Source of the DNA: Alphaproteobacteria bacterium
GTDB lineage: Bacteria > Pseudomonadota > Alphaproteobacteria > Micavibrionales > UBA2020
Direction of reading: 5' to 3'
Assembly: GCA_041287865.1 (NCBI GenBank)
Contig: JBGGMV010000066.1
Location: 7,966-71,965 of the forward strand
Length of the DNA: 64,000 nt
The first letter of the stretch is position 1; each line of letters opens with the position of its first letter. Below, one piece after another: positions 1,832 to 46,002 of the stretch. The notes under the pieces were generated by a model that saw only the letters and a program-made list of their open reading frames with translations, was not told the origin of the DNA and made no database searches. Both the position numbers and the translations under genes were made by a program.

Positions 1832-1837
1832 CTTTCT

Positions 1838-2997: not shown

Positions 2998-4104
<1,107 letters not shown>

Positions 4105-6415: not shown

Positions 6416-7032
6416 TCATCGCCGGATTAACAGGGTCTATCGGCATGGGCAAATCGACGGCATCGAACATGCTGCGCGAGATGGGCGTGCCGATCCACGA
6501 TTCAGACGCCACCGTGCATGAGCTGATGGGCAAGGGCGGCAAGGCTGTCGCGGCCATCGCCGCGCTCTGCCCCGAATGTCATGTCGATGGCGGCATCGAC
6601 CGCAAGATACTGGGCAAATATCTTTTCGCCGACCCCGCCCTGAAACAGGCGGTCGAAGATGTGCTCTTCCCGCTGGTCAAGCAATCGGCTGTTGATTTCA
6701 TCGCGCTGAAGAAAACCGAAGGCCATGCGCTGGCGGTGCTCGACGTGCCGCTGCTGTTCGAGGCCGGCTGGGACAAGATGGTCGATAAGGTCATCTGCGT
6801 CTCCGCCCCGCCCGAGGTGCAGAAGGCCCGCGTCATGGCCCGCCCCGGCATGACGGAGGAACGCTTCAACGCCGTGCTGAAGGCGCAGATGAGCGACGCC
6901 GACAAGCGCGCGAAATCGGACTTCATCATTGATACGGGCGTTGGTATGGATGATACGCGCGCGCAGTTGAAAAAACTGGTGGATACGCTGCGTCCTGCCG
7001 CGCGTCCGAACCCACCCGGAATTAAACCATGA
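6412..7032 (+). CDS. coaE: Dephospho-CoA kinase (copy 1)
   Basis: 206 aa, starting MIIAGLTGSIGMGKST (P-loop), with D-PLLFE. It sits in the conserved aroE-coaE-dnaQ arrangement. Confidence 0.9.
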   Translation: MIIAGLTGSIGMGKSTASNMLREMGVPIHDSDATVHELMGKGGKAVAAIAALCPECHVDGGIDRKILGKYLFADPALKQAVEDVLFPLVKQSAVDFIALKKTEGHALAVLDVPLLFEAGWDKMVDKVICVSAPPEVQKARVMARPGMTEERFNAVLKAQMSDADKRAKSDFIIDTGVGMDDTRAQLKKLVDTLRPAARPNPPGIKP

Positions 7033-7646
7033 TCGTAATCGGTATTACCGGCTCGATCGGCATGGGCAAGACCACGGCGGCCAACATGCTGCGCGAGATG
7101 GGCATCCCCGTGCACGACAGCGACGCCAGCGTGCACAAGCTGCTGGGCCCCGACGGCGCAGGCGTGGAAAGGGTCGCGCAGAAATTCCCCGAGGCGGTGC
7201 GCACCGACGAAGCCGGCCATAGCTATATCGACCGGCAGGCGCTGGGCAGAATAGTGTTTGGTGACCGCAATAAAAAACGCGAACTGGAAGAAATCCTGCA
7301 TCCGATCGTGCGCGCCGAAAGCGACGCCTTTAAAGAAGAAATGCGCCAAAAGGCCCATAAAATCATCGCGCTGGATATTCCCCTGCTGTTCGAGACGGGC
7401 GGCGAGAAACGGGTCGATGTAACCCTTTGCGTCACCGCGTCGAAAGACGAACAAAGGAAGCGCGTCATGGCGCGCCCTGGCATGACGTCCGATAAATTCG
7501 ATCGCATCGTCGCGGGCCAGCTGCCCGACGCCGAAAAACGCAAAAGGGCAGACTATGTGGTGGAAACGGATATCAGTCTCGATGAAACGCGCAAGCAGCT
7601 GCAAAAAATCATCGACCTTGTGCGCACGCAGCGCCGCCGCCGTTGA
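7029..7646 (+). CDS. Dephospho-CoA kinase paralog (copy 2)
   Basis: 205 aa, starting MIVIGITGSIGMGKTT, with LDIPLLFETG. It aligns with copy 1 along its whole length but is clearly diverged. It has a 4-nt overlap with copy 1. Confidence 0.85.
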   Translation: MIVIGITGSIGMGKTTAANMLREMGIPVHDSDASVHKLLGPDGAGVERVAQKFPEAVRTDEAGHSYIDRQALGRIVFGDRNKKRELEEILHPIVRAESDAFKEEMRQKAHKIIALDIPLLFETGGEKRVDVTLCVTASKDEQRKRVMARPGMTSDKFDRIVAGQLPDAEKRKRADYVVETDISLDETRKQLQKIIDLVRTQRRRR

Positions 7647-7647
7647 C

Positions 7648-8379
7648 ATGAAAAAGTTTCTTTTCGCCTTGCTGCTTTTCGCAACGCCCGTCCATGCGGC
7701 CGACAGCGTCGTGGTGGCCGAGCTGTTTACCTCCCAGGGCTGTTCCTCCTGCCCGCCCGCGCAGGCCTTTCTGGGCGAACTGGCGAAACGCGACGACGTG
7801 CTGGCGCTGGAGCTGCATGTCGACTACTGGGATAATCTTAAAACCATGCTGCATGGCACATGGAAAGATCCTTACTCCGACAACGCATGGTCGCAGCGGC
7901 AGCTGGAATACAACCGCCGCATGACGGGCGAGGAAGAGGCGAGGGTCTATACGCCCGAGATGGTAATCGACGGCCGCTTTCAGGAAACCGGCAGCAAGAA
8001 AAGCGCGGTGAACGACATGATCGAACAGGCGCGCAGTTTGCGCCGCGGCGTCTATACCATCACCACCGCGTCGACAGACAAGGGCGTCGATATCAAGGTC
8101 GATGGCGCGGGCAAGGGCATCATGAAACCGCAACAGGTTGTGCTGGTGCGCCTGATCACCGAAGCCGAGACAAAAATAACGGCGGGCGAAAATAACGGCG
8201 ACCTGCTGAAGGGCTATAACGTCGTGAAGGACATGATGGTGGTGGGGACATGGAGCGGCGGCAAGGAAACCTATAATGCCCCCATCCCGCCCTTCAAGGC
8301 AGGGGAGAGCTGCGCCGTGCTGCTGCAAGACCCTGAAAACATGCATATTATATCGGGCGCGAAATGCACATTGAACTGA
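7648..8379 (+). CDS. DUF1223-family secreted protein (thioredoxin-like)
   Basis: Internal start at MKKFLFALLLFATPVHA (signal peptide), followed by VVAELFTSQGCSSCPPA, which is characteristic of DUF1223. Confidence 0.8.
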   Translation: MKKFLFALLLFATPVHAADSVVVAELFTSQGCSSCPPAQAFLGELAKRDDVLALELHVDYWDNLKTMLHGTWKDPYSDNAWSQRQLEYNRRMTGEEEARVYTPEMVIDGRFQETGSKKSAVNDMIEQARSLRRGVYTITTASTDKGVDIKVDGAGKGIMKPQQVVLVRLITEAETKITAGENNGDLLKGYNVVKDMMVVGTWSGGKETYNAPIPPFKAGESCAVLLQDPENMHIISGAKCTLN

Positions 8380-8405
8380 ATCACAACGGCTGGTAATTTT
8401 CGCCC

Positions 8406-9140
8406 ATGCGTGAAATCGTCCTCGATACCGAAACCACGGGCTTCGACCCCGAAGAAGGCCACAAGCTGGTCGAGATCGGCTGCGTCGAGCTTGAAAATCA
8501 TATCCCGACGGGCCGTGTTTTCCAGACCTACCTGAACCCGCAGCGCGACGTGCCGGCTGAAGCCGCGCGCGTCCACGGCCTGACCACCGAATTTTTGAAA
8601 GACAAGCCGCTGTTCACCGAAAAGGTCGGCGACTTCCTCGATTTCATCACCGACGGCACGCTGGTGATCCACAACGCCGAATTCGACATGAAGTTCATCA
8701 ACTTCGAGCTGAAGGAAGCGGGCTTCAAGCCGTTGCAGATGGCGCGCGTCATCGACACCCTGCCCATCGCTCGGCAGAAATACCCCGGCCAGCCAGCCTC
8801 GCTCGATGCGCTCTGCCGCAGATTTAAAATCGACCTGACAGAACGTAAATTCCACGGCGCCTTGCTCGACTGCCAGTTGCTGGCGGAAGTGTATCTGGAG
8901 CTGAAAGGCGGCCGGCAGCATGGCCTCAGCCTGATGAGTGAAGCCGCGATCGCCGGTTCCGTCCAGTTAAACGCCAAAATCAGGCGCCAGAAACGCGCCC
9001 ACCGCCACTTCCCCGCAACGGCGGAGGAAGAAAAAACGCATGGCGGCTTTATCGAGAAGATCAAGAACAGCCTCTGGTCACAGCTGACCGGCGCCGCCCC
9101 GCCTGCCGAAGAAAAGAAGAAAGACGGCACAAAAGGCTGA
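8406..9140 (+). CDS. dnaQ: DNA polymerase III epsilon subunit (3'-5' exonuclease)
   Basis: Begins MREIVLDTETTGFDP (ExoI). It also has VIHNAEFDMKFIN (ExoII) and FHGALLDCQLLAEVY (ExoIII). Confidence 0.92.
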   Translation: MREIVLDTETTGFDPEEGHKLVEIGCVELENHIPTGRVFQTYLNPQRDVPAEAARVHGLTTEFLKDKPLFTEKVGDFLDFITDGTLVIHNAEFDMKFINFELKEAGFKPLQMARVIDTLPIARQKYPGQPASLDALCRRFKIDLTERKFHGALLDCQLLAEVYLELKGGRQHGLSLMSEAAIAGSVQLNAKIRRQKRAHRHFPATAEEEKTHGGFIEKIKNSLWSQLTGAAPPAEEKKKDGTKG

Positions 9141-9175
9141 TTTAAACTAAACAAACAAACCGCGCACTTTATGCG

Positions 9176-9220
9176 CAAACAAAAACGCCGCCCGGTTTTC
9201 CGAGGCGGCGGTTTTGTTTG
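9176..9220. terminator. Bidirectional rho-independent terminator between convergent dnaQ and secB
   Basis: The sequence caaacaaaaacgccgcc / ggcggcggttttgtttg forms a hairpin of about 17 bp with A/T runs on both flanks. Confidence 0.8.
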
Positions 9221-9232
9221 CGTAAGTAAAGC

Positions 9233-9775
9233 TTAGGCTTTCGCGACTTCCTTTTCGCCTTTTTCCTGCTGGCGCTTCACTTCGTTGAGGTAGATCGCCT
9301 CGAAGCTGATGGGCGTCAGGAACAGCGGGGGATAGCCGCCGGCGGAGGTGACGTTCGCCACAATCTCGCGCGCGAAGGGGAAGAGCAGTTTCGGCACTTC
9401 CACCATGATGGCGGGGGCGTGGCGGTCCTGCGGGATGTTCTGCAGCACGACCAGCGCGCCGTATGAAAGATCGATGATGAAGCAGGGCTTGCGCTGGCCA
9501 TTGTCTTTTTCTTCCAGCGGTTTCACGGCTTCGATGCGGAAGTTGACGCTGCACTCGTAAGCGTCTTCGCGGATCGGCTGGTGGCGCAGGAAGATCTGCA
9601 CGTTGGTTTCGGGCGTCGGCCATTTCGAAATCAGGCTTTCCGGCGCGTTCGGGTTTTCGAACGAGAAATCCTTGATGTACTGCGCCACGACCTGGATGCC
9701 GGGGGCGTTATTCGCCTGCGCGCTGGCCGAAGGCATGGTCGCGGGCTTCGCTTCGGGCTTCTTGTCTTTTGCCAT
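9233..9775 (-). CDS. secB: Protein-export chaperone SecB
   Basis: 180 aa. The sequence IQVVAQYIKDFSFENPNAP...VNFRIEA...LLFPFAREIVANVTSAGGYPPL is typical SecB. Confidence 0.9.
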   Translation of the reverse strand: MAKDKKPEAKPATMPSASAQANNAPGIQVVAQYIKDFSFENPNAPESLISKWPTPETNVQIFLRHQPIREDAYECSVNFRIEAVKPLEEKDNGQRKPCFIIDLSYGALVVLQNIPQDRHAPAIMVEVPKLLFPFAREIVANVTSAGGYPPLFLTPISFEAIYLNEVKRQQEKGEKEVAKA

Positions 9776-9870
9776 AATTTGTTAATCCTTTTGGATGGTC
9801 ACTGCGTTTTACCTGCCCAATGCGTAGCATGGGCCTTATATGACCGCAAGATATGCCTGAAACCCGCAGT

Positions 9871-10347
9871 TTAGGGCAGTTTTTCGGTATCGTCGACGCG
9901 GAGGTATTCGCCCTCGATCACGGTCGTCTTCGGGGGTGAACCGGCGCTATCCGTCCGGCGCATATGCGACCAGCTGCGGTAACTGCGGCGCAGCACATGG
10001 TCGGGGCTTTTCTGCGTACGGGTGAACAGCCACTGGCGAAGCGACGGCACCAGCAGCGGCACAGCGATAAAATCGCTGATGAAGCCCGGGAAAATCAGCA
10101 GCAGCGCCGCAATCAGCATGCAGAGGCTGGCAAAGATGCTTTCGCCGCCGAATACTTCCGCATCGTCGGATGCCGCCGCGCGCGACAGCGCCATCGATCC
10201 GCCCATGGTCAGCAGGTAAAAACCGGCAGAAGCCGCAAAGAACAGCCAGAGCAGCGTGGCGAAAAAACCGATGCTGCCGCCGATAAAGATAAAGCCCAGC
10301 AGCTCGGCCAGCGGCAGCAGGGTCAGGGGTGATAAAAAGTTAATCAT
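9871..10347 (-). CDS. fxsA: FxsA-family membrane protein
   Basis: Internal start at MINFLSPLTLLPLAELLGFIFIGGSIGFFATLLW, which is the FxsA N-terminal pattern, followed by FPGFISDFIA. This is the truncated form of track ORF 9871-10428. Confidence 0.75.
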   Translation of the reverse strand: MINFLSPLTLLPLAELLGFIFIGGSIGFFATLLWLFFAASAGFYLLTMGGSMALSRAAASDDAEVFGGESIFASLCMLIAALLLIFPGFISDFIAVPLLVPSLRQWLFTRTQKSPDHVLRRSYRSWSHMRRTDSAGSPPKTTVIEGEYLRVDDTEKLP

Positions 10348-10542
10348 TTCAGCCGCTTGGGAATAGAGGGAATCTTTACGTTTTACGCCTATATTTATAA
10401 TGGGTGTAAAACTGGATGGATACACCAAAATAAGATAGAATCTAATGAAGGACCTGCAAGAGCTGTGCGTTAGCTTTACAGCATCAAAAACAAAGGCCGC
10501 GCTACAAAATTACAAGAGTTTGGCAGAAAGAGGACGGTTAGG

Positions 10543-11229
10543 GTGGATATTCTCATTTTCGCGGTTATCGCGGCATTTCTCGTCTACAGGCTGCATTCCG
10601 TGCTGGGCTCGAAACCCGGCAATCCCGACGAACGCCAGCGCCCGAACCCCTTCTCATCCGATGCGCCCCAGCCGGCCAAGGCTGTCGTGCAACCGCTGAA
10701 ACACCAGCGCCCCGTATTGCCCCCCCAGCCGCTCGACCTCGGCATGGTGGATAGCGAAGCCAACAAGGACGGCCGCATCGAGCAAGGCCTTGCCGATATC
10801 ATCACCGAAGATGCCAGCTTCGAGATCAATAGCTTCATGCAGGGCGCGCGCTATGCCTTCGAAATGGTCGTGACCTCCTATGCGAAGGGCGACCTGCCCG
10901 CGCTGCAACCGCTGCTCAGCGAAAAGCTCTACGGCGATTTCAAGGCCGGTGTGGCCGCGCGCGAACAGGCGGGCCATGTTTCCGATGTTACCATCCACCG
11001 CATCAAATCCGCGCGCCTGACCGACGCCCATATGGGCGGGTTGATGGCCTATATCACGGTATCTTTTGAAGTCGAGGAAACCTCCGTCACCCGCGACCGT
11101 GCCGGCGTGGTTGTCTCCGGCAGCCCCGATGAAATCACCACCATCGAAGACGTCTGGACCTTTACGCGCGACGTACGCTCCTCCGACCCCAACTGGATTC
11201 TTATTGAGACGCGGGCCGTAGAGAAGTAA
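10543..11229 (+). CDS. Tim44-like domain protein
   Basis: GTG start. It has an N-terminal TM helix (MDILIFAVIAAFLVYRL) and a C-terminal region (FMQGARYAFEMVVTSYAKGD...WTFTRD...DPNWIL) that matches the bacterial Tim44-like pattern. Confidence 0.75.
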   Translation: MDILIFAVIAAFLVYRLHSVLGSKPGNPDERQRPNPFSSDAPQPAKAVVQPLKHQRPVLPPQPLDLGMVDSEANKDGRIEQGLADIITEDASFEINSFMQGARYAFEMVVTSYAKGDLPALQPLLSEKLYGDFKAGVAAREQAGHVSDVTIHRIKSARLTDAHMGGLMAYITVSFEVEETSVTRDRAGVVVSGSPDEITTIEDVWTFTRDVRSSDPNWILIETRAVEK

Positions 11230-11262
11230 TCTGTCCCCTGTATTTCCGAAGGGGATTTTTCC

Positions 11263-12477
11263 ATGCGCATCTGTTTCCTGATATTGCCGCTGCTGCTCGC
11301 CGCCTGCGCTATGCCTGCGGAAAGCGTGAAGAAAAAGGAAGAACCGTTTTTCCTGAAACCGACCGCGTTCGCCGCATTGCCCGGCTGGCAGCAGGACAGC
11401 CAGGGCGAAATCCTGCCCGCGCTCGAAAAATCCTGTGCCCGCATTGCGAAGAAGGATGCCGATAAAACCTTCGGCCCCACCGACATCGGCACCTATGCTG
11501 ACTGGCAGGAGACTTGCGCGAAACTGCCGACCGATGCCGCGAATGCCCGCGCCTATTTCGAAGAAAACTTTATCCCTTACGAAATCTGGGGCGACAAGGG
11601 CAGGGACGGGCTGTTCACCGGCTATTACGAACCCACGCTCCACGGCTCGCTGAAGAAAAGCAAAAAATACAATATCCCCCTCTACGCCCGCCCCGCCGAT
11701 TTAATCAGCGTCAACCTTGGCGATTTCAAGGAAGCTCTGAAGGGCGAAAGCATCATGGGCCGCGTGAAGAAGGACAAGCTGGTGCCCTATTACACGCGCG
11801 AGGAGATCGAGGAGGGTGCCTTGAAGAAATCGAAAAAGGTGATTTACGTCGATAACGCCGTCGATGCCTTCTTCCTGCATATCCAGGGCTCGGGGCAGGT
11901 GGTGATGAAAAACGGCAAGGTCCTGCGCGTTGGCTACGCGGCAGCGAATGGCCGCGCCTATTACGCCATCGGGCAGGAATTGATCAAGCGCGGGGAGTTG
12001 CAGAAAGAAAACGTCTCGATGCAGAGCATCCGCAAATGGCTGGAAGAAAACCCGGACAAGGCGGAGGAGGTGATGAACCTTAACCAGTCTTACGTCTTCT
12101 TCAATAAACTTGAAGGCGATGGCCCGCTGGGGGCCGAGGGCGTGGCTTTGACGCCGGGGCGCAGCCTTGCGGTCGACCGCAAGAAACTGCCCTATGGCGC
12201 GCCGGTGTTTATTGACGCCGCGGCGCCCGAAGGTGAAGGACGCATCCAGAAACTGATGGTGGCGCAGGATACCGGCGGGGCTATTCGCGGGGCGGTGCGC
12301 GGCGATTATTTCTGGGGTGCGGGCGAAGATGCGGCGCATAACGCCGGCATCATGAAAAGCGCGGGCCAATCCTACGTTTTGCTGCCCAAAGCGGTGAAAG
12401 TGCCCGAAAAACTCCAGCCCAAGACATGGTGGCAAGCAGAGGGTGACGGGGCCAAGCCGATGCCCTATAATCCCTGA
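11263..12477 (+). CDS. mltA: Murein transglycosylase A (lipoprotein)
   Basis: Lipobox LLLAAC. It has an MltA core (FFLHIQGSGQV, YAIGQELIKRG) and a 3D-domain C-terminus (AQDTGGAIRGAVRGDYFWG). Confidence 0.85.
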   Translation: MRICFLILPLLLAACAMPAESVKKKEEPFFLKPTAFAALPGWQQDSQGEILPALEKSCARIAKKDADKTFGPTDIGTYADWQETCAKLPTDAANARAYFEENFIPYEIWGDKGRDGLFTGYYEPTLHGSLKKSKKYNIPLYARPADLISVNLGDFKEALKGESIMGRVKKDKLVPYYTREEIEEGALKKSKKVIYVDNAVDAFFLHIQGSGQVVMKNGKVLRVGYAAANGRAYYAIGQELIKRGELQKENVSMQSIRKWLEENPDKAEEVMNLNQSYVFFNKLEGDGPLGAEGVALTPGRSLAVDRKKLPYGAPVFIDAAAPEGEGRIQKLMVAQDTGGAIRGAVRGDYFWGAGEDAAHNAGIMKSAGQSYVLLPKAVKVPEKLQPKTWWQAEGDGAKPMPYNP

Positions 12478-28547: not shown

Positions 28548-29060
28548 TTACTTTTTCCGCTCAAGGACGGTGATCGTGTAGTCGCAGGTTTCCCCCGGCA
28601 GGGCAGGGTGATGCTCGCGTTTGACTTCTTTCCACTCGGCCTTGTCGAAGGTCGGGAAATGGGTATCGCCTTCGGGCGACAGGTGAATTTCGGTCAGGTA
28701 CAGGCGGTCGGCATGGGGCAGGGACAGGCGGTAAATTTCCGACCCGCCGCCGATAAAGATTTCACCGACGCCGTCTTTCTCCGCAATGCCGCGCGCCATC
28801 TCGATGCCGTCCTCCAAAGTGTGGACGACGAAGGCGCCTTCGGCTTTGTAATTGGTATCGCGTGTGACGATGATGTTCGCGCGTTTGGGCAGCGGCTTGC
28901 CCAGCGATTCAAAGCTCTTGCGGCCCATGACGATCGGGTGGCCGATGGTCGTGGTTTTGAAATACTGGAATTCGGATTTAATCTCCCAGGGCATCCAGCT
29001 GTCCTTGCCGATCACGCCGTTTTCGGCGACCGCTGCGATAAGCGAAACTTTCACCGTCAC
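28548..29060 (-). CDS. folA: Dihydrofolate reductase
   Basis: Carries [40 protein letters not shown] and LYLTEIH motifs. Confidence 0.92.
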
Positions 29061-29851
29061 ACCGCAACCTTTCCTTTAATGGCCGCATGGTGCTGGTAAC
29101 CGGTGATTTCAAAGTCTTCGAACTTGAAATCGAACAGGTTTTTGACGGCGGGGTTAAGCTTTACCTGCGGCAGCGGCAGCGGGTCGCGCTGGAGCTGCAG
29201 TTTGCACTGCTCGATATGGTTCACGTAGATATGCAGGTCGCCGAAGCTGTGAATGAATTCACCGGGCTGCAGCCCTGCCACCTGCGCGATCATCAGCGTC
29301 AGCAGCGCATAGGAAGCGATATTGAACGGCACGCCAAGGAAAACATCCGCAGAGCGTTGATAAAGCTGGCAGGACAGCTTTCCATCCTGCACGTAAAACT
29401 GGAACAGGCAGTGGCAGGGGGCCAGCGCCATTTTGGGAATGTCGGAGGGATTCCACGCCGTCACAATCAGGCGGCGGCTGTCGGGATTGGTTTTAATCTC
29501 GTTTAAAATGTTCGAGATTTGATCGATAGCACCGCCATCGGCTGCAGGCCAGCTGCGCCACTGCGCGCCGTAAACGGGGCCGAGATCGCCGCGCTCGTCC
29601 GCCCATTCGTCCCAGATGCGGACGTCGTTCTCCTTGAGATACTTGATATTCGTATCGCCCTTCAGGAACCAGAGCAGTTCATGGATGATCGATTTGGTAT
29701 GGACTTTTTTGGTCGTGACCAGCGGAAAACCCTTCGCCAGATCATAGCGCGACTGGTGGCCGAAGGTTGAAATGGTGTCGACGCCGGTACGGTTCTTTTT
29801 CAGCTTCCCGTTATCAAGGACATGCTGCATCAACTCCAGATACTGTTTCAT
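29057..29851 (-). CDS. thyA: Thymidylate synthase (ThyA type)
   Basis: Starts at [12 protein letters not shown], giving 264 aa. It has DRTGTGT-like NRTGVDT, the catalytic [12 protein letters not shown] region and DLHIYVNH. It has a 4-nt overlap with folA. Confidence 0.95.
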
Positions 29852-29910
29852 GTGCGCTTCCCCCTGCTGAAAACCGATTCTATCACAAGGCAATATAGAG
29901 AAGGCAGCCA

Positions 29911-29947
29911 AAAATAAAAGCGGCGGAAGGGGGTAAATCCTTCCGCC
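29911..29947 (-). terminator. Rho-independent terminator after the 29971-30486 gene
   Basis: A 9-bp perfect stem (ggcggaagg / ccttccgcc) is followed on the minus strand by GCTTTTATTTTT. Confidence 0.6.
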
Positions 29948-32105: not shown

Positions 32106-32174
32106 TATTGCGCCAAAACTGGCAAAGCCCCTGAAACTACTGGTTTTTTAATCTTTTTCCGCTATATTGAAGAT

Positions 32175-32536
32175 GTCCGGAGCAATCCGGACTATGACGA
32201 TAAACGCGCTATAAAATAGGCGAGACGGACCTGGGGGCGGTACCCAGCGGCTCCACCATTCTTCAAAAGGATTTGCGAAAGTTGTCTTCGCATCCGGTAT
32301 GGGGCCGAAATAGGATCGACGTGCGTAGTAAAGATGGTTGCTTTCGTCCGGCATTGTTCCGCCGTTATCGGGCTACTTTTATAAATGCTAACGACAACAT
32401 GCCCGCAAGGGCTGAACTCCGCCTCGTTGCTTAACAGCGACAACAGCGAAGTTGGCATTCAATTCCTAAGCTAGCAATAGCATAGGTGGGGCGTGGGGGC
32501 AGGCCTAGCAACAGAACTGCCCCCATTTTCTTTTTT
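32175..32536 (+). ncRNA. ssrA: Two-piece (circularly permuted) tmRNA; the 5' boundary is approximate
   Basis: The acceptor piece ends ...CTGGGGGCGGTACCCAGCGGCTCCACCA at 32258. The coding piece starts GGGGCCGAAATAGGATCGACG at 32301. GGGGCCG pairs with CGGCTCC, including the G3:U wobble. The tag ORF at 32387-32434 encodes ANDNMPARAELRLVA*. It ends in a hairpin at 32495-32524 plus a U-tract. Confidence 0.8.
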
Positions 32537-32563: not shown

Positions 32564-33367
32564 ATGAGCACCCCCCAGAAACCAGCCGTAAAAATGCCGG
32601 TTCTGGTCAGGATTATTTTCTGGAAGGTTCACTCGCGGCAGATGGCCCTGACATGGGTACGGGTTCTCGGGGCCCTTGGCCTCGTCTGCGCTTTTTTCAG
32701 TTTGATGTCGCCCCTCAACGTTTATTTGTGGGTGCCTGCTATCTACTCTTTTGCCGCTGGGGCCCTGTGCTGGTGGTTATTGAAGTGGTTTGACAGGAAC
32801 GGCGTCTGGCCCTCTGCAACGCCGTCCAAAGGCCTGATAGCGGCGGTCTGGTGCATCCCGGCGCTGGCCGCGCTGGTGCTGGCGACTCTTGAGTTCTTTA
32901 TCGGGATCCATCACTTCTCGCACAACGGCATGTATCCCGGCCTGCCGGCAAAGAGCGTGATTTTTACCAATAAACGCGCCTATGCGGCGCCGTCAGACGT
33001 CAAGCGGGGGGATATCGTTTACTTTACCCTCGAAACAGAGGAAGAAACATTCAAGTTTATCTTGCGCGTCATCGGCCTTCCGGGCGAAACGGTGAAGAAT
33101 GCCGGCGAGGCGCTTTCCATCAACGGGCAGCCTGTCAAACGGAAACTGCTCCGCAAGGCTGACGATACAACAATCTTCCGCGAAAGCATTGGCGAGGCCT
33201 CCTATGAGGTGGCCTTCGATAAGACCCCGCCCCGCAAGCCACTCGATGTGACAATTACCGTGCCGGCTGACGCGTTCTTCGTCATGGCTGATAACCGTCT
33301 TAGCGCTTTTGACAGCCGGTGGTTTGGGACAGTTCCGTTCAGTGCAATCATCGGCAAGAAGTTTTGA
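32564..33367 (+). CDS. Signal peptidase I (S26) homolog with N-terminal multi-TM region, apparently lacking the catalytic Ser and Lys
   Basis: It retains S26 boxes (RGDIVYF, LRVIGLPGE, FVMADNRLSAFDSRWFG). The SM-PTL box reads NGMYPGL and the K of the (I)KR-GLPGD box reads L. I placed the start at ATG 32564 because track ORF 32486 overlaps the tmRNA terminator. Confidence 0.75.
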   Translation: MSTPQKPAVKMPVLVRIIFWKVHSRQMALTWVRVLGALGLVCAFFSLMSPLNVYLWVPAIYSFAAGALCWWLLKWFDRNGVWPSATPSKGLIAAVWCIPALAALVLATLEFFIGIHHFSHNGMYPGLPAKSVIFTNKRAYAAPSDVKRGDIVYFTLETEEETFKFILRVIGLPGETVKNAGEALSINGQPVKRKLLRKADDTTIFRESIGEASYEVAFDKTPPRKPLDVTITVPADAFFVMADNRLSAFDSRWFGTVPFSAIIGKKF

Positions 33368-33375: not shown

Positions 33376-33404
33376 GGCGACGGCAGGGTCGCCCCGGTTT
33401 CTTT
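33376..33404 (+). terminator. Possible rho-independent terminator after the S26-like gene
   Basis: Stem ggcgac / gtcgcc with a 6-nt loop, then a T-rich run (ccggtttcttttcatttttt). Confidence 0.45.
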
Positions 33405-34445
33405 TCATTTTTTGGGCGTCAGCTTCAGCGGCTTTGAAACCTTCGCCGCCGTGTCCAGCGCCATGCGGAAATCGAGGTCGCCGTCCTTGTCGCAGAGCAG
33501 CCATGTCTGCCAGCCGCCGCTGCGGGCGTCTTTCGGCCTGACTTCCAAAGCGCCGTCGCTTTCCTTGCGCGTCACGAAATCGCCGGGGTGAACGACCTGG
33601 TAGATCGAGCCCGCGCCGGTGCCGAAGGTGTCGGCCGCCTGCCAGGCGCGGAAAGGGGTGGAGAGGGTATAGACGATATTTTTATCGCCCTCGGTCTCGA
33701 CGCGGGAAACGACGGTGCCGGAGCGGGGGCAGACCGCCCCTTGCGCGTATTCGGCGGCGGGCGATACATGCGAAAAGCTGATATCGGGCATGCGGCGGGG
33801 GTCGAGCGCATCGGCGGTTGTCATTTTATCGAGCATGCCCCTGCGGTCTTCCCAGACCACCAGCACCTGCCCTTCGGTGGCGACACCCTCGTGGTAGGAA
33901 GGTTTTCCTTCGTCGAAGCCCTGCCGCAGCGTATAGGCCTGCCCCGCCTTCAGCGGCACGACAAGGTAGCGGCTTTCGTCGCGGTAGTAGGAACAGTCGG
34001 AGAAATCGATGTCCATGAGCGGCATCAGGCGGGTCTCCGGCCTGCCCGGATAGTCGAGCGGCACCTGCTTGCTTTTGTCGGCGATCTGGTCGGGCACGAA
34101 GACCTGCCCGTCGGGAAAGGCGAAGGTCCACAGGCGCGGGAGGGCCTTGGTGACTTCCGTGGGCCTGTCGCCGCCGATGCCCGCATCGCGCAGCGCGCCG
34201 AACATCATCATGTCATGCGTCGACATCGTGACGCGGGGAAATTCGGAGAAACCGGGGTCGGTCTTTTTCATGCGCTTGACGAGGCTGGCCTCGAACAGCG
34301 CCAGCTGCTCGGGCGTGATCGCTGCGCCGTCGTGCTCGGCGGGCAGACGCTTCGCCCACCAGGCGGCCAGCGCCTGCAGGGCCGTGTCGGGCCACCAGCC
34401 CGATTTCGGCGCGGCCCTGCTGTTGAAAGCGTCGTTGCTGCTCAT
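33405..34445 (-). CDS. Hypothetical protein, tandem paralog Q1 (last of 4)
   Basis: 346 aa. It shares blocks with Q2-Q4 (ALAAWWAKRLP; IDFSDCSYYRDESRYLVVPLKAGQ; GQVLVV; PGDFVT). The C-terminus is KVSKPLKLTPKK. Confidence 0.75.
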   Translation of the reverse strand: MSSNDAFNSRAAPKSGWWPDTALQALAAWWAKRLPAEHDGAAITPEQLALFEASLVKRMKKTDPGFSEFPRVTMSTHDMMMFGALRDAGIGGDRPTEVTKALPRLWTFAFPDGQVFVPDQIADKSKQVPLDYPGRPETRLMPLMDIDFSDCSYYRDESRYLVVPLKAGQAYTLRQGFDEGKPSYHEGVATEGQVLVVWEDRRGMLDKMTTADALDPRRMPDISFSHVSPAAEYAQGAVCPRSGTVVSRVETEGDKNIVYTLSTPFRAWQAADTFGTGAGSIYQVVHPGDFVTRKESDGALEVRPKDARSGGWQTWLLCDKDGDLDFRMALDTAAKVSKPLKLTPKK

Positions 34446-35518
34446 GCGGGCGTTTTACCGGGAGTTAATTTCAAGGGCTTGCCGGCGGTGATCGGCTTGT
34501 CCAGCGCGTTCATCTCCAGCGTCTCGCCCCCGGGCGTGCAGGGGATGAAGCAGCTGAGGCCCCTTTCCATCGCGGCCTTGGGCAAGACGAAGTGCCGGTG
34601 GCCGCGGTCCATCTCCATCCGCGACACGAAGTCGCCGGGGTTGACGGTCTTGTAGTCGATGCTCCAGCCGGTGAGGAAGGTTTGCTTCGCCTCCAGCAGC
34701 TGCAGCGGGTGGGAAACCATGCGGTAGTGGCCCTTGTTGTCCAGTTTTTCCAGCGTGCCGTCGTAACCCTTGCCTTCCTTGTAGCTCGATTTCAGGCAGA
34801 CGGAGGCGGAGGTGACGTTCGGGTGAGACCGCAGGTCGAGCGCATCCGCCGCGGTCAGGCTGTCGTAGCCTTCCGTGCCTGCGGCATGGATGACCAGCAC
34901 GTCGTCTCCCTTTGCCTCCCGCTCCACGTAGGTCAGGGTGCCGTCTTTGGCGCGGCGCGGCAGCTGCACTTTCTGGCCGGCCTCCAGCTCGACAATCATC
35001 ATGCGGCTTTCCTGCCTGAACCAGAGCGCGCCGGTGAAATCGATATCGCCGTATTTGATAAAGGGCGTCGCGGGCTGCCCGCCATAGGCGAGGGGCTGGC
35101 CCGCGGCGAAAAGCTGCCCGTCGGTGTAAAGGCGCGTTTCCACGATGCTGGACTTCATCTCGTCATAGACATCGGGAATGCCCGCCCTTGCGCAGGCGTT
35201 TTTCAGCGGCGTCGAAGGGGCGCGGGTTGCGCCGGGCGGCTGGTTGTCGGCGTTGGTGACGTAAAGGCAGTTCGCAGGCGATTTGCTGGGCGGCACCTGT
35301 TTCAGCTCGTCCACCAGCGCCTCGGTAAAGGCCGCGCGCTGGGCAGGGGTGACGGTCGCGGTGATGATTTCTATCGACATGATGTCTGTTCCCACTCCCG
35401 TCTGGTATTCCTTGGGCAGTCTGTCCGTCCACCAGTTGGCGATCACGCGATACGTTTCTTCGGGCCACTTGAAGGCGTCGCTGGCGGCGTTGAACGCGGG
35501 GGTTTTTGTATCGGTCAT
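34442..35518 (-). CDS. Hypothetical protein, tandem paralog Q2
   Basis: 358 aa. Shared blocks are VIANWWTDRLP, IDFTGALWFRQESRMMIVELEAGQ and PGDFVS. The C-terminus is ITAGKPLKLTPGKTPA. It has a 4-nt ATGA overlap with Q1. Confidence 0.75.
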   Translation of the reverse strand: MTDTKTPAFNAASDAFKWPEETYRVIANWWTDRLPKEYQTGVGTDIMSIEIITATVTPAQRAAFTEALVDELKQVPPSKSPANCLYVTNADNQPPGATRAPSTPLKNACARAGIPDVYDEMKSSIVETRLYTDGQLFAAGQPLAYGGQPATPFIKYGDIDFTGALWFRQESRMMIVELEAGQKVQLPRRAKDGTLTYVEREAKGDDVLVIHAAGTEGYDSLTAADALDLRSHPNVTSASVCLKSSYKEGKGYDGTLEKLDNKGHYRMVSHPLQLLEAKQTFLTGWSIDYKTVNPGDFVSRMEMDRGHRHFVLPKAAMERGLSCFIPCTPGGETLEMNALDKPITAGKPLKLTPGKTPA

Positions 35519-36609
35519 GGGTTTTTGGCTCCGTTCATCTGTATCTGCAATGGCTTGCGGGTGGTGATGGGCTTGTCCAGCACGGTCGGGTCGATGAGTG
35601 TGCCGTCAGGCGTGCAGGGCTGCATGATGCGCCGGCCGTTTTCCGTCCAGCTTTTCGGGATGGCTTCGAACAAGTCGCCTTCTTTGGTCTGCAATTTCGA
35701 GACGAAATCGCCCGGCTGCAAGACGACATAGCCGTCCCGGCTGCGGGTGGCGAAGGCTTCGGTGACTTCCAGCATCTGCAGCGGGCCGGACAGTTTGCGG
35801 AACTGCCCCTTGTCGCCGACTTTTTCCAGCGTGCTGCCGGCGAGCGTGACGCCGTCGGAGAACGTGGCAGCATCCGCGATAAAGCAGTAGGGGATTTCGG
35901 GGTGGAGGTGCAGCCTGAACGCGTCCTCTGTCGTCAGCTTGTTGAAATCGGGGGTGTCGTTCGAGGGGATGACCAGCACCTTTCCCTCGCCCACACGCTC
36001 GGTTTCATAGACCCGCTTGCTGTCTTTCTCCCGCGCCAGCCTGCAGGTCTGGACCTTCTGCCCCGCATCGAGCGGTGCGACCAGGCAGCGGGTTTCCCGC
36101 CTGAACCAGCGGCAGCCGGTGAAATCGAGATCCTTCAGTTGCGTAAAGGTTGTGGCGGGCTGCGCCGCGTGCTCGATGCGGCCGTCGAGGTTGAAGATCT
36201 GCCCGTCGGCGTACAGCTGTGTCCACATGGTTTCAAGGCTGAAGAACGCGTCGAAGATGCCGGCTTTTTCAAGCGCGGCCTCCAGCGGCGCCGAATCCGC
36301 CCTGCCGCCGGGCGCATCGTGCGCGATGCAGTTGCTGTTGCTGACATAGATGAATTCGTTGCCGTAGCGGCCGGTGCGCAGGGGAACGGTTTTCAGCTCC
36401 TGCACAAAGGCGTCCTTGAAGGCGGCGAGATGCGCGGCGGTGACCTCGACCTTGACGGCTTTCTGGCCGACATCGTCGTCGCGGTCGTCGACAATGGTGA
36501 AGCTGGAGGGCAGCCGCCCTGCCCAGAATTCCGCCAGCGCGCGGGCGCTGGCGTCGCTCCACTGGGGCGGTCCGGCGTCGCTGGCGGCGTTGAAGGCGGC
36601 GGTTTTCAT
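35515..36609 (-). CDS. Hypothetical protein, tandem paralog Q3
   Basis: 364 aa. Shared blocks are ALAEFWAGRLP, LDFTGCRWFRRETRCLVAPLDAGQ and PGDFVS. The C-terminus is ITTRKPLQIQMNGAKNP. It has a 4-nt overlap with Q2. Confidence 0.75.
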   Translation of the reverse strand: MKTAAFNAASDAGPPQWSDASARALAEFWAGRLPSSFTIVDDRDDDVGQKAVKVEVTAAHLAAFKDAFVQELKTVPLRTGRYGNEFIYVSNSNCIAHDAPGGRADSAPLEAALEKAGIFDAFFSLETMWTQLYADGQIFNLDGRIEHAAQPATTFTQLKDLDFTGCRWFRRETRCLVAPLDAGQKVQTCRLAREKDSKRVYETERVGEGKVLVIPSNDTPDFNKLTTEDAFRLHLHPEIPYCFIADAATFSDGVTLAGSTLEKVGDKGQFRKLSGPLQMLEVTEAFATRSRDGYVVLQPGDFVSKLQTKEGDLFEAIPKSWTENGRRIMQPCTPDGTLIDPTVLDKPITTRKPLQIQMNGAKNP

Positions 36610-37715
36610 GCGGGCTGCCCCGGACGGTTGATTTTAAGGGGCTTCAGCGCGGTGATATCCTCGCCGGTCGTGGTGGGGTCGATCAAATTGCCTTTGTCGT
36701 CGGAGGCCAGCCAGCGGCGGGCGCCTTCCTTCAGCCATTCTTTTTTCACGACTTCGTGCCGCGCCTGTCCGTTCTCGACCGTGCAGGTCAGGAAGTCGCC
36801 GGGGGAGACGATCTGGTAACTGCGCCCGTCGCCGACGAAGAAAGGCGCCACCGCCGCCTTGGCGCGGAACGGCTTGCCGAGCGAGCGGTAATGGCCGGCG
36901 TCGCCGACCTTCTCGAACTTCTGGCCGAACTTGCCTTCGGGATTGGTGTAATCCGATTTCGGGTCGGTCATCGCGAAGGTGATATCGGGGTTCTTGCTCT
37001 GGTCGAAAAGATGCCGGCCGACGACGATATCGTCGAAATTCTTCGCGCCGGATTCAAAGATCACCAGCACCTGGCCTTCCTTGTCGACCGTTTCCTCGCG
37101 GTATTCCATCTTGCCCCAGCGCATCATGCCGGTGACGATCTTCTGCCCGACGGGAATATCGACCAGCAGGTAGCGGCTTTCGTCGCGGTACCAGTTGCAG
37201 CCCTTGAAATCGAGCTCGGCCGCGCCGGCCTGCGGGATTTTCGGGCGGTCGGGATGGTCGATGACCTTGCCCTCGGCGAAGGCCTGCCCGTCCTCGAACA
37301 GCGTGGTCGATGTTTTCCACGGCAGGGTGATCATGCCGTCGCCGATTCCCGCCGCCTTGAGCGCATTGGCCAGCGCCTCGCAGGGGTGGTAGTCGGTATT
37401 CAGCTTGATGCATTGCTGCTGCACATAGGTGCCACGTTCGCGCGGCGCCTGTTTCATTTCGCCGATCAGGGCTTCGACGAAGGCGTCATACTGCTCCTGC
37501 GTCACCTGAATTTTCAGCCGGTGTTTTTCCTTCATCGCCGTCACCTGCGCCACTTGGGCGCTGCCGCCGATATTGTCGAGTTCCTGTTTCGGAATGCCCA
37601 GCTGCTTCGCGCCCGGCAGGTGGTCGGCCCACCAGGTGGCGAGCGCACGGTAGCTGCCGTCGCTCCACTTCACGGGCGTGCTTTCCTCGTTGAATTGCTG
37701 GATTATTTCAGCCAT
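36606..37715 (-). CDS. Hypothetical protein, tandem paralog Q4 (first of 4)
   Basis: 369 aa. Shared blocks are ALATWWADHLP, LDFKGCNWYRDESRYLLVDIPVGQ and PGDFLT. The C-terminus is ITALKPLKINRPGQPA. It has a 4-nt overlap with Q3. Confidence 0.75.
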   Translation of the reverse strand: MAEIIQQFNEESTPVKWSDGSYRALATWWADHLPGAKQLGIPKQELDNIGGSAQVAQVTAMKEKHRLKIQVTQEQYDAFVEALIGEMKQAPRERGTYVQQQCIKLNTDYHPCEALANALKAAGIGDGMITLPWKTSTTLFEDGQAFAEGKVIDHPDRPKIPQAGAAELDFKGCNWYRDESRYLLVDIPVGQKIVTGMMRWGKMEYREETVDKEGQVLVIFESGAKNFDDIVVGRHLFDQSKNPDITFAMTDPKSDYTNPEGKFGQKFEKVGDAGHYRSLGKPFRAKAAVAPFFVGDGRSYQIVSPGDFLTCTVENGQARHEVVKKEWLKEGARRWLASDDKGNLIDPTTTGEDITALKPLKINRPGQPA

Positions 37716-38182: not shown

Positions 38183-38279
38183 GACTTATTCATAATCGCC
38201 CGAAAAGCGCGTGACAGTGTTAACGACTCTCTCTAAACTGGCACGGACTAAGTTAAGAAACACCGGAGCAAGTATTAAT

Positions 38280-38777
38280 ATGGCCCCCCGCAACCGAGAA
38301 GACGCCTTCCGCTACGACAAGATGGTCGAGAAGGCTTTGCGCGGCGTGGTCAAGCAGGCGCTGGCCGAGGTTGTTAAAGACGGTCTGGTCGACGACCACC
38401 ATTTCTACATCACCTTCTTCACCGACCGCCCGGGCGTGAAACTGCCGCCCTACCTGAAAGACCGTTATCCCGGTGAAATGACCATCGTGCTGCAGCACCA
38501 GTTCTACGACCTCGAGGTCGATGACGAACGCTTTACGGTGATGCTGTCCTTCAACAACGTGCCGGAACGCCTGACGATTCCGCTGTCGGCGATCACCATT
38601 TTTGCCGACCCCTCCGTCAACTTCGCGCTGCAGTTCCAGCCGCTGTCGGAAGAAGACGAAGACGAAATCCAGTTCGAAGCCGAAGAGCTTGATCTGGACA
38701 AGGACGACAAGGCGAAGAAAAAAGGCGAAGTCATTTCGCTCGACTCTTTCCGCAAAAAAGATAAAGACAAGACCTAA
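38280..38777 (+). CDS. sspB: SspB-family ClpXP adaptor (alpha-proteobacterial type)
   Basis: The sequence HHFYITFFTDRPGVKLPPYLKDRYPGEMTIVLQHQFYDLEVDDERFTVMLSFNNVPERLTIPLSAITIFADPSVNF is the SspB substrate-binding fold pattern. An acidic linker and a basic C-terminal ClpX-binding-like tail follow. I placed the start at ATG 38280. Confidence 0.78.
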   Translation: MAPRNREDAFRYDKMVEKALRGVVKQALAEVVKDGLVDDHHFYITFFTDRPGVKLPPYLKDRYPGEMTIVLQHQFYDLEVDDERFTVMLSFNNVPERLTIPLSAITIFADPSVNFALQFQPLSEEDEDEIQFEAEELDLDKDDKAKKKGEVISLDSFRKKDKDKT

Positions 38778-44043: not shown

Positions 44044-46002
44044 GTGGTTGGGTTTACCAAAATGGCTGAAGATGCTACCGCAAAAGCAGGCGCTGCCAAG
44101 CCAGCGCAACCGAAACCGTCGGGTGGTCTGTCGATGAACCCGTCGCCTGAGGATCTGCTTGTGCCGCCCTCACCCCCCGCACCCTCGGCGGCTCTGCCTG
44201 TGTCGACGGGCGCCGCGATCACCATTTCCGGCGGCGCCAACGCGCCCGCCATGCCCGGCGCGGCAGGCCCCGGCACAGCCCCCGGCGGCGGCAAACGTAT
44301 CGGCGACCGCCTGCTGGAACGCGGCCTCATCACCGAAGACCAGCTCAAGGTCGCCCTGCACGAAAAGAAAACATCTTCAAAGCTGATCGGCGAGATCCTT
44401 GTCGACCTCGGCTTCATTTCCTCGACCGCGCTGTCCGAATTCCTGTCTGAATCCACGGGCCTGCAGCAGTTCGACCCCAAGAAAACGATGCTCGACCCCG
44501 AAGCGCTCGAGATGATCCCGAAGAAGGAAGCGCAGAAGTACCAGATCCTGCCCGTCTCCGTCGACAAGGCCGCGAACCGCGCCGTCATCGCCATGGTCGA
44601 CCCCTACGACGTGGTGGCGCTCGACAAGCTGAAGCAGCTGCTGCCCAAATCCTGCATGATCGTGCCGCAGATCTGCCCGCCCGCGACGCTGGCGGACGCG
44701 ATCCACAAGGCTTACGGCGTCTCCACCTCGATCGACGCGATTTTGAAGGAGCTTGCGGGCGACGCTTCGGCCGCGAAAAAGAACCTCGATACGCTGTCGG
44801 AGGCTGAATCTTATAGTCACCCGCTCGTGCGCCTTGTCAACGCGCTGATCTTCGAAGCCGTGAAAATGGGCGCGTCCGACTTGCACTTCGAGCCCGAAGA
44901 AAACTTCATCCGCCTGCGCTGGCGCATCGACGGCGACCTGATCACCTCGCACACGCTGCACAAGGAATACTGGAGCGGCATCTGCCAGCGCCTGAAGATC
45001 ATGGCCGAGCTGAACATCGCCGACAAATATTCGCCGCAGGACGGCCGCTTCAACCTGAACATGGGCGCGAGGGAAGCCGACTTCCGCGTCTCCTGCCTGC
45101 CGACCGTGCATGGCGAGAACATCGTGCTGCGCGTGCTCGACAAATCGGCGTCCATCGTGCCGCTGACCAAGCTCGGCTTCTCCGAACACAACCTGCGCAT
45201 CATCAAGAAGGCGCAGTCCCGCCCCGAAGGCATCATCATCGTCACGGGCCCCACCGGCTCAGGGAAAACAACGACGCTCTACTCGATGCTGAACGACGTG
45301 AACACGCCCGACGTGAACATCCAGACGCTGGAAGACCCGGTCGAATATAACCTGGGCATGATCAGGCAGTCGCACGTGAAAGAGGGCGGCGGTTTCACCT
45401 TCGGCGAGGGCGTGAAAGCGCTCCTGCGCCAGGACCCTGACATCATCTTCATCGGCGAGGTCCGCGACCTCGTGACCGGCGAGCAGGCGCTGAAAGCCGC
45501 CATGACCGGCCACCAGGTCTATACCTCGCTCCACACCAACGACTGCTTCGGCGCCGTGCCGCGCCTGGTCGACATGGGCCTGAAGCCCGGCATGATTTCG
45601 GGCGCGATTATCGCAACCTTTGCGCAGCGACTTGTCAGAAAGCTTTGCCAGAAGTGCAAGAAACCTGCGGCGGCCACGCCCGAAGAATGCAAGATGCTGA
45701 GGGACGGCCCCGACGGCAAGGCAATCGACCCTGCCAACCCGCCCACGATCTACCATCCCGGCGGCTGCCCGGATTGCAATAATACCGGCTTCAAGGGCCG
45801 TATCGCCTGCGTCGAGATCCTTTACTTCGACGACGATATGGACGCGCTGGTGGCGCAGGGCGCGCACAAGGCCGAAATGAAGAAAGTGGCGCTCACCAAG
45901 GGCTTCAAGAGCATGCTCGACGACGGCATCGTCAAGATCTACGAAGGCACGACCAGCCTTGATCAGGCCAGCAAGTCCCTGAACTTCGCCGACCGCCTCT
46001 AG
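44044..46002 (+). CDS. pilB: Type IV pilus assembly ATPase, PilB/GspE family, with MshEN/T2SSE_N-type N-domain
   Basis: Carries Walker A (GPTGSGKTTTLYS), Asp/His boxes and a C-terminal tetracysteine (CQKC...CPDC). The N-domain reads RIGDRLLERGLITEDQLKVAL / LIGEILVDLGFISSTAL. It has an Ala/Pro-rich leader of about 75 aa. GTG start, 11 nt after GGAGGA. Confidence 0.9.
   Translation: MVGFTKMAEDATAKAGAAKPAQPKPSGGLSMNPSPEDLLVPPSPPAPSAALPVSTGAAITISGGANAPAMPGAAGPGTAPGGGKRIGDRLLERGLITEDQLKVALHEKKTSSKLIGEILVDLGFISSTALSEFLSESTGLQQFDPKKTMLDPEALEMIPKKEAQKYQILPVSVDKAANRAVIAMVDPYDVVALDKLKQLLPKSCMIVPQICPPATLADAIHKAYGVSTSIDAILKELAGDASAAKKNLDTLSEAESYSHPLVRLVNALIFEAVKMGASDLHFEPEENFIRLRWRIDGDLITSHTLHKEYWSGICQRLKIMAELNIADKYSPQDGRFNLNMGAREADFRVSCLPTVHGENIVLRVLDKSASIVPLTKLGFSEHNLRIIKKAQSRPEGIIIVTGPTGSGKTTTLYSMLNDVNTPDVNIQTLEDPVEYNLGMIRQSHVKEGGGFTFGEGVKALLRQDPDIIFIGEVRDLVTGEQALKAAMTGHQVYTSLHTNDCFGAVPRLVDMGLKPGMISGAIIATFAQRLVRKLCQKCKKPAAATPEECKMLRDGPDGKAIDPANPPTIYHPGGCPDCNNTGFKGRIACVEILYFDDDMDALVAQGAHKAEMKKVALTKGFKSMLDDGIVKIYEGTTSLDQASKSLNFADRL

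Follow-up and report, generated by a model that had tools for sequence, protein, structure and literature searches.

What can a protein do that has the fold of signal peptidase I and none of the residues with which signal peptidase I cuts? The question is raised by a gene in a 64,000-nucleotide stretch of an alphaproteobacterial genome (contig JBGGMV010000066.1 of assembly GCA_041287865.1; this whole stretch is called the window below). A preliminary description placed the gene between ssrA, the gene for transfer-messenger RNA (tmRNA), and a minus-strand array of four paralogs, Q1-Q4, convergent with that array, and by the coordinates of the window this is correct. It also took the product for a homolog of signal peptidase I (peptidase family S26) that had lost both catalytic residues and might serve as a receptor or chaperone, and it implied a link to the Q array. 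Our own answer is that the product is probably, though far from certainly, a non-catalytic, peptide-binding S26 membrane factor, fused from a two-helix hairpin and a pseudo-peptidase, which would depend neither on the Q genes nor on ssrA.

A signal peptidase fold without the catalytic residues

By sequence and by predicted fold the protein is a genuine S26 homolog. The Pfam family PF10502 (Peptidase_S26) matches residues 98-266 (E=6e-30, 104.8 bits against a cut-off of 22.9), and the model TIGR02227 (signal peptidase I) scores the protein at 94.6 bits against a cut-off of 47. The conserved S26 boxes are in place, namely M-x-P (box B), RGD (C), R-x-x-G-L-P-G (D) and D-N-R...D-S-R (E), and the motifs quoted earlier for this gene (NGMYPGLPAKSVIFTNKRAY, RGDIVYF, ILRVIGLPGE and FVMADNRLSAFDSRWFG) are all found in the translation of its open reading frame (ORF). 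An AlphaFold2 model, for which 120 relatives served as input, has a mean predicted local distance difference test score (pLDDT) of 88.4, a predicted template modelling score of 0.74 and no segment below 50. It places three N-terminal helices (residues 25-48, 53-79 and 89-111) before a beta-rich domain with pLDDT of about 90. The top 25 Foldseek matches of this model in the PDB are all signal peptidase I or SipA; the best is E. coli signal peptidase I (E=1.2e-8), and S. aureus SpsB and SipA (4n31, E=1.4e-5) are among them.

A pairing by eye with E. coli LepB had put Gly at the position of the nucleophile Ser90 and Leu at that of the general base Lys145, and formal alignments by two programs agree with it. 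With phmmer, 'DYIKRAVGLPGD' of LepB pairs with 'KFILRVIGLPGE', and 'YIKRAVGLPGD' with 'FILRVIGLPGE'; in the comparison with the Bacillus anthracis signal peptidase (4nv4), 'gkSMmPTL' pairs with 'hnGMyPGL' and 'YVKRIIGLPGD' again with 'FILRVIGLPGE'. A MAFFT alignment of 150 representatives and LepB gives the replacements Ser88 to His120, Ser90 to Gly122, Lys145 to Leu167, Gly272 to Ala242 and Ser278 to Ala248. The boxes of the LepB sequence in this alignment agree with the phmmer alignments to PDB entries. Hence, beyond both residues of the dyad, the Ser that positions the Lys is also missing. In LepB, Ser278 orients Lys145 and Ser88 forms the oxyanion hole (PMC4049620 and background on LepB).

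A shift in register that would bring a Ser and a Lys to the catalytic positions was considered. It cannot restore the dyad, because the flanking residues M123, P125, R168 and L-P-G are invariant in the family alignment, as is D250-S251-R252. At every residue by which an active signal peptidase I can be told (Ser90, Lys145, Ser278 and Ser88) we found a replacement. Judged by these residues, the protein cannot use a Ser-Lys mechanism, being without nucleophile, base and oxyanion Ser.

A large clade of pseudo-signal-peptidases

The preliminary description treated the missing residues as a local loss. Instead, the protein belongs to an old and large clade in which Gly, Trp and Ala are fixed at the catalytic positions. 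A word-indexed protein search gave 212 relatives which, the identical protein aside, are 42-59% identical to the window protein and mostly 177-186 residues long. When 120 of these were aligned, the Ser90 position was Gly in all 120, the Lys145 position Trp in 117 (Leu in two, Arg in one), the Ser278 position Ala in 118 and the Ser88 position Gln in 118. The substituted sites are embedded in a near-invariant context, I-P-Q-N-G-M-Y-P and Y-I-W-R-V. As the signature of the clade we used Q-N-G-M-Y-P in box B, W-R-V in box D, D-N-R-x-x-A-x-D-S-R in box E and the 'SYEVAF' strand.

A HMMER search of 1.84 billion cluster representatives (50% clustering) gave 10,508 matches at E<=1e-3, 453 at <=1e-10 and 22 at <=1e-30. 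Of the best 150 representatives, about 80 combine Gly at one dyad position with a hydrophobic residue at the other, and only 21 have Ser/Lys/Ser; the latter forms dominate only below E of about 1e-16. The residues at LepB positions 84, 86, 91, 95, 101, 132, 143 and 144, which according to established structural work on LepB line the S1 and S3 pockets, belong to matching hydrophobic classes when 79 pseudo-type representatives are compared with 21 of the active type. As far as can be told from the alignment, then, the clade as a whole keeps the hydrophobic residues of the substrate groove while its catalytic positions are fixed as Gly/Trp/Ala.

We read the window protein as a divergent, long-form member of this clade. 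Its best matches are all clade members (48-59% identity), and it keeps N-G-M-Y-P, Ala248 and the 'SYEVAF' strand; altered are Gln (to His), Trp (to Leu) and 11 other conserved positions. In the other 119 members, 61 columns reach a conservation of 90% or more; the window protein departs at 13 of these, the median member at 2 and the next worst at 8. These departures include Pro to Ser119, Gln to His120, Trp to Leu167, Gly to Ala242 and three groove positions. One full-length relative, P0002, is 48% identical over 100% of the length and is encoded in another alphaproteobacterial metagenome-assembled genome (MAG), between dnaE and rpsB.

Members of the clade pass for active enzymes in current annotation. 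The 'equivalog' model TIGR02227 gives dyad-less proteins 95-124 bits (117-124 for clade members P0069 and P0011), well over its cut-off, which is why public records list them as 'signal peptidase I'. The window product itself is recorded as MEZ0261240.1, 'MAG: signal peptidase I [Alphaproteobacteria bacterium]', with the same 267 residues, on a contig of 145,694 bp. Such systematic over-annotation matters for genome annotation and for counts of lepB paralogs.

Other S26 variants with a partial dyad were seen among the representatives P0121-P0267: Gly/Lys/Ser in six, Ala/Lys/Ser in four, Ser/Phe/Ala in two, Ser/Gln/Ser in two and Ser/Asn/Ser in one. Judged by these sequences, the S26 dyad seems to have been lost or remodelled on many occasions. 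The pattern 'FVMGDNR' was tried in a scan of a genome collection for the taxonomy of the clade and was rejected, the matches listed being ordinary Ser/Lys signal peptidases. In viral contigs there was a single match, a chance one in an ORF of 55 codons, and thus no evidence of phage-borne clade members; matches to PHROG 15562 are generic S26. The PADLOC defence models matched neither the window protein and its relatives nor Q1 or Q2. In the literature, of which our coverage is incomplete, we found no account of the clade, of its link to cassettes, of signal-peptidase-like cassettes or of the 77-residue partner described below.

A two-helix module fused to the peptidase part

The N-terminal 130 or so residues had been credited with three to four transmembrane helices. 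There are indeed extra helices, but the count is three and the second is weak: helix 3 reaches a Kyte-Doolittle maximum of 2.45 (residues 87-116), and helix 2 stays under a threshold of 1.6. Helix 3 aligns with the N-terminal anchor of the 177-186-residue relatives. What, then, are the other two?

They are a separate module that has been fused to the peptidase part, and not an expanded anchor. A profile, A2, was made from the N-terminal part (residues 1-90) of the window protein together with six further long forms; it matches the window ORF at E=1.3e-32 (hmmsearch) and retrieves 202 proteins, nearly all of 76-78 residues and without a Pfam or NCBIfam family. The motifs of this hairpin are W-P-x-W-V-R-x-G-L-W-G-x-P-x-R and L-W-Y-Y-x-S-I-R-W-V-D-x-H-G-x-W-S, and the stand-alone proteins stop ('...RWVDxHGxWS') exactly where the long forms run on. 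They come from Pirellulales, Gemmataceae, Planctomycetaceae, Chloroflexia and unassigned metagenomes. As a two-helix membrane family of about 76-78 residues without a curated family (for example P0302-P0421), the hairpin is of interest in its own right, being widespread in Planctomycetota-type and other MAGs. Its gene may be mobile or not: in a Pirellulales MAG (L218) it is a single cassette (6001-6234) between attC-like sites at 5866-5991 and 6240-6365, and in another locus (L219) it is an ordinary chromosomal gene.

The two units can be seen both side by side and joined among the relatives. At one locus, found in four samples (L146, L216, L111 and L121), a decayed attC (GCCTAAC...CACTAGG) separates a stand-alone hairpin gene from the short-form pseudo-peptidase gene that comes after it. 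In P0409 the same pair occurs with the spacer cut to 7 residues, and P0004 and P0007 still show the Met with which the peptidase part once began ('...WS-A-MPSVS...'). We found at least 12 distinct proteins with the fusion. In their S26 domains they resemble unfused members about as much as they resemble one another. This suggests, at the level of sequence comparison, more than one event of fusion or fission. Fusion of this kind is classically read as a sign that the two separate proteins cooperate.

Five bona fide Ser/Lys signal peptidases (P0231, P0232, P0236, P0245 and P0259) also have two extra N-terminal helices, three in total, so that a three-helix architecture alone is no marker of a pseudo-enzyme. 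By eye, these five are without the hairpin motifs of A2.

Relatives in integron cassettes

Where are the short forms encoded? The contigs that encode P0069, annotated as Verrucomicrobia, carry long runs of small ORFs on the same strand. In one of them (L090) the ORFs are separated by repeats of about 105-130 nucleotides that start with RYCTAAC... and end with ...CTCGTTAGRC. These are the canonical ends of attC sites (R'' RYYYAAC, R' GTTRRRY), they fold with paired ends, and there are 22 of them in 12 kb. The pseudo-peptidase ORF (6001-6534) is one cassette of this array, between attC sites at 5882-5991 and 6544-6667. In L006 (P0098) a site of the attC type lies 10 nucleotides past the stop codon. 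Altogether, attC sites adjoin relatives in L006, in L089-L092 and in 12 of 61 metagenomic loci.

The 61 loci, meant as an unbiased sample, are the distinct, genuine family ORFs obtained when metagenome contigs were scanned with the back-translated motif P-Q-N-G-M-Y-P. The sites were called by a fold-based test; an ungapped match of 25-nucleotide arms missed true sites and was dropped. An attC-like site was present within 330 nucleotides downstream of 8 of the 53 family ORFs that could be tested on that side, and upstream of 4 of 49. The controls gave 1 in 77 random windows of the same contigs and 0 in 78 stretches downstream of true signal peptidase genes. About 20% of the metagenomic relatives are thus next to attC, against about 1% in the controls, and a substantial minority is cassette-borne. 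The window itself has no attC-like site on either strand of its 64 kb, and its copy is therefore the chromosomal, non-cassette form.

The other cassettes of the L090 array (1-11953; L089, L091 and L092 have it also) encode mostly unannotated proteins of 80-140 residues, together with an acetyltransferase, a GFA protein, a TonB_C-like protein and an alpha/beta hydrolase. No integrase for the array was found within the stretch fetched.

Genomic contexts and the Q array

Does the gene keep company with any other? Its relatives stand, among other places, between dnaE and rpsB, with acetoacetate decarboxylase and GT87 genes, among glycogen genes, with a DarT-Macro pair, with an insertion sequence element, and at rpsL-rpsG. 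These independent contexts share no gene but the S26-like gene itself. When all ORFs of eight loci (L001-L008) were compared with one another, the only common items were this gene and its shadow ORFs, with no Q-like gene among them, and further contexts have only cassette arrays in common.

The implied link to the Q array finds no footing here. A tblastn search found no Q homolog near the relatives in eight loci (L001-L008), and nothing like the Q array is in the lists of called genes of L089-L096; co-conservation with Q-family genes, which had been proposed as a check, is thus absent from the neighbourhoods searched. Q2 has no homolog except itself among 5.8 billion proteins. Q1-Q4 are without signal peptide, membrane anchor or hydrophobic 19-mer, so that, judged by sequence, they are probably cytoplasmic and unlikely clients of a periplasmic groove. 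Their block has a G+C content of 62-65%, against 55-56% for the S26-like gene and 55-58% for the flanks. The four proteins, of 346-369 residues and 29-38% identical among themselves, match nothing in Pfam, NCBIfam or PADLOC; they are an orphan gene family that has expanded in place.

Possible functions

With the catalytic residues gone and the groove kept across the clade, a non-catalytic binder is the best reading of the protein. Its anchor would sit in the inner membrane, and its S26 domain would most likely face the periplasm. There are five Lys/Arg and no acidic residue before helix 1, and the loop between helices 2 and 3 is net positive; from three helices and the positive-inside rule we infer that the N-terminus is inside and the S26 domain outside, which would be the orientation of real signal peptidases. 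At the membrane surface the domain would bind an extended, signal-peptide-like segment without cutting it; in the manner shown for SipA, the protein would serve as holdase, receptor or competitor rather than as a protease. The earlier proposal of a receptor or chaperone in place of a protease is in this respect reasonable, given the groove conserved in the clade and the precedents of SipA and SpsA, although the function is one we infer only. The hairpin and pseudo-peptidase parts may cooperate in a self-contained accessory function. That both units are elsewhere single-gene cassettes argues for such a function, with no dependence on the Q genes or ssrA.

Several points weigh against this. Helix 2 is only moderately hydrophobic; should it fail to cross the membrane, the S26 domain would end up in the cytoplasm. 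The Trp or Leu at position 145 may leave the S1 pocket open, or it may plug the groove. In the groove region the window protein has the departures F84H, I86F, P87S, V132Y and G272A (LepB numbering); it may have drifted under relaxed selection or have an altered specificity. Finally, the stand-alone hairpin gene and the short pseudo-peptidase gene mostly occur apart from one another, and any partnership is therefore optional.

If drift is taken at its word, the family may be functional while the window copy is a decaying relic without a selected function. This is unlikely, though there are points in its favour: the window protein is the most divergent of the 120 members, its departures touch the family-specific Gln, Trp and Gly, and its nearest relative is just 48% identical. 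However, the ORF of 267 codons is intact, the model is of good confidence along its whole length (mean pLDDT 88), and the motifs that define the fold (RGD, R168, LPG, DNR and DSR) are kept. P0002, moreover, is ortholog-like and full-length, in a different housekeeping context of another alphaproteobacterial MAG. Alternatively, the protein could still be a peptidase or other hydrolase that uses different residues, with Ser119/His120 (at LepB 87 and 88) or Lys164 (at 142, three residues before the old Lys) as candidates. We regard this as quite unlikely. That catalytic residues can have 'migrated' in a pseudoenzyme is known from elsewhere (PMC10211241). But at the positions in question other residues prevail in the family, namely Pro (99%), Gln (99%) and mostly Asn/Asp; the sole invariant polar residues N121, D150, R168, D250, S251 and R252 are either structural throughout S26 or, in the case of N121, a single amide; and a comparable nearby Lys in SipA was tested and found irrelevant (PMC4049620). 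A more daring suggestion is that of a decoy or shield: a mobile, integron-spread pseudo-peptidase of the envelope, alone or together with the two-helix hairpin, could soak up natural signal peptidase inhibitors such as lipopeptides of the arylomycin type or shield particular signal-anchored proteins from LepB. It is unlikely, but if true it would be a new cassette-borne mechanism of resistance or regulation based on a pseudoenzyme.

The neighbours of the gene suggest two further roles. It adjoins the Q array, and since pseudo-peptidases of the SipA type act on the products of neighbouring genes (PMC4049620), it could be a dedicated assembly or secretion chaperone for Q1-Q4. This has become very improbable and is largely refuted by the observations above: the Q proteins have no hydrophobic segment or signal peptide, no Q-like gene was near the relatives in the loci searched, Q2 stands alone, and the G+C content of the two differs. 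The position next to ssrA brings to mind a TraF-like S26 protein of a conjugation or pilus system on a mobile element, tmRNA genes being classic sites of integration. There are weak matches to TIGR02771 (31.2 bits) and PRK13838 (22.9 bits), but these scores are far under the cut-offs of 100.25 and 186, TraF proteins are known to retain the Ser/Lys dyad, the flanks contain no integrase, type IV secretion gene or tmRNA-end repeat, and the closest full-length relative is not at ssrA. We give this last suggestion hardly any credence; it is not supported.

Comparison with known systems

Active signal peptidases of the LepB/SipS type (MEROPS S26A, PF10502, TIGR02227) resemble the window protein in fold, in boxes B-E and in the N-terminal anchor, and they share groove residues with its clade. 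They differ in having Ser90, Lys145, Ser278 and Ser88 where the window protein has Gly, Leu, Ala and His, and in lacking its two extra helices from the fused module. Closer in mode is SipA (LepA; PDB 4n31) of Streptococcus pyogenes, which has a conserved cleft, carries Asp and Gly in place of the dyad Ser and Lys, lacks peptidase activity and is nonetheless essential for pilus polymerisation (PMC4049620). No other non-catalytic S26 protein has been studied as well. SipA resembles the window family in the S26 fold, in the replacement of both dyad residues, in a retained binding cleft and in a single-pass membrane anchor, but it has Asp plus Gly where the window family has Gly plus Trp or Leu. 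SipA is encoded in sortase-pilus operons of Gram-positive bacteria, whereas the window family is Gram-negative or environmental and has no conserved neighbourhood; no sortase or pilin gene is in the flanks of the S26-like gene. With phmmer there was no sequence match to SipA, so that the likeness is at the level of the fold only. SpsA of Staphylococcus aureus is likewise an S26 homolog without both catalytic residues and inactive in assays (PMC12414704). It adjoins its active paralog SpsB, in contrast to the window gene, which has no active paralog in the 64 kb, and substitutions and lineage differ. The short-form relatives and the stand-alone hairpin can be compared to other integron cassettes, as they are bounded by attC (RYYYAAC, GTTRRRY, paired stem); the window copy is unlike these, without attC and in an ordinary chromosomal region (thyA, ssrA, sspB). 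In sum of likeness, the window protein is closest to SipA and SpsA in mode, yet it is no member of those groups by sequence, substitutions, context or lineage.

The concept of a pseudo-signal-peptidase is established. What is new is how large the clade is, that its Gly/Trp/Ala signature is fixed, that it is mobile and that it has a fusion partner. Work on dead homologs of signal peptidase has until now dealt with single Gram-positive examples (SipA and SpsA), and a large, strongly conserved clade in environmental Gram-negative lineages extends them. Mobility in cassettes, together with repeated fusion to the 77-residue hairpin, offers a testable partner and suggests a self-contained, adaptive function in the envelope. 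For the window, the suggested ties to the Q array and to ssrA are removed.

The gene and its surroundings

The coordinates of the gene, its parts and its neighbours are collected in Table 1. The gene starts with ATG, and its stop codon (33365-33367) is taken from the ORF list. An in-frame GTG at 32486 would lengthen the ORF, but it would make it overlap the tmRNA gene. The terminator-like hairpin between the two convergent genes is weak evidence, since the number of such sites in the consensus scan is not above that in shuffled sequences.

Table 1. Features of the S26-like gene and of its neighbourhood (positions in the window; aa, amino acids)
Feature	Positions	Strand	Basis
thyA	29057-29911	-	window gene order
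194-aa ORF	between thyA and the DUF6782 gene		window gene order
DUF6782 metallopeptidase-like gene, 471 aa	30690-32105	+	domain, E=8e-14
tmRNA gene, two-piece alphaproteobacterial type	32136-32527	+	ARAGORN; Rfam RF01849, 229.7 bits
Coding sequence of the S26-like pseudo-peptidase, 267 aa, stop included	32564..33367	+	ORF list; PF10502; TIGR02227; identity to MEZ0261240.1
N-terminal two-helix membrane module, residues 1-89 (helices 25-48 and 53-79)	32564..32830	+	AlphaFold2; A2 profile
Third helix, residues 89-111, equal to the single anchor of short forms and ordinary signal peptidases	32828..32896	+	AlphaFold2; Kyte-Doolittle; alignment
S26 (signal peptidase I) fold domain, residues 112-267	32897..33364	+	Pfam 98-266; AlphaFold2; Foldseek
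Codon GGC, Gly122, at the position of the LepB nucleophile Ser90; box B FSHNGMYPGL	32927..32929	+	phmmer; MAFFT
Codon TTG, Leu167, at the position of the LepB general base Lys145; box D FILRVIGLPGE	33062..33064	+	alignments
Codon GCT, Ala248, at the position of LepB Ser278 (orients Lys145); box E MADNRLSAFDSRWFG	33305..33307	+	MAFFT with LepB
Terminator-like hairpin and T-run between the convergent S26-like gene and Q1	33376..33403	+	consensus scan; weak
Q1-Q4, four tandem paralogs	33405-37715	-	window gene order
sspB (ABC transporter next)	38211-38777	+	window gene order
Type II secretion/type IV pilus ATPase, T2SSE and MshEN domain	44044-46002	+	E=1e-113

A search for a bona fide lepB elsewhere in the genome had been proposed as a check. 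The 64-kb window, which is the part covered here, has no second S26 gene and hence no bona fide lepB.

The tmRNA gene and sspB are 5.7 kb apart, with only the S26-like gene and the Q array in between. SspB is the adaptor that hands ssrA-tagged proteins to ClpXP. The block of S26-like gene and Q array may be an insertion into an ssrA-sspB neighbourhood; no flanking repeats and no integrase were found around the block between the tmRNA gene and sspB. A genomic island at ssrA was considered and rejected, there being no tmRNA-end repeat and no integrase in the flanks. The ATPase of the type II secretion/type IV pilus type is about 10 kb from the S26-like gene, and no evidence ties the two together. 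Directly upstream of the tmRNA gene is the gene for the putative DUF6782 metallopeptidase, which has a long shadow ORF on the opposite strand.

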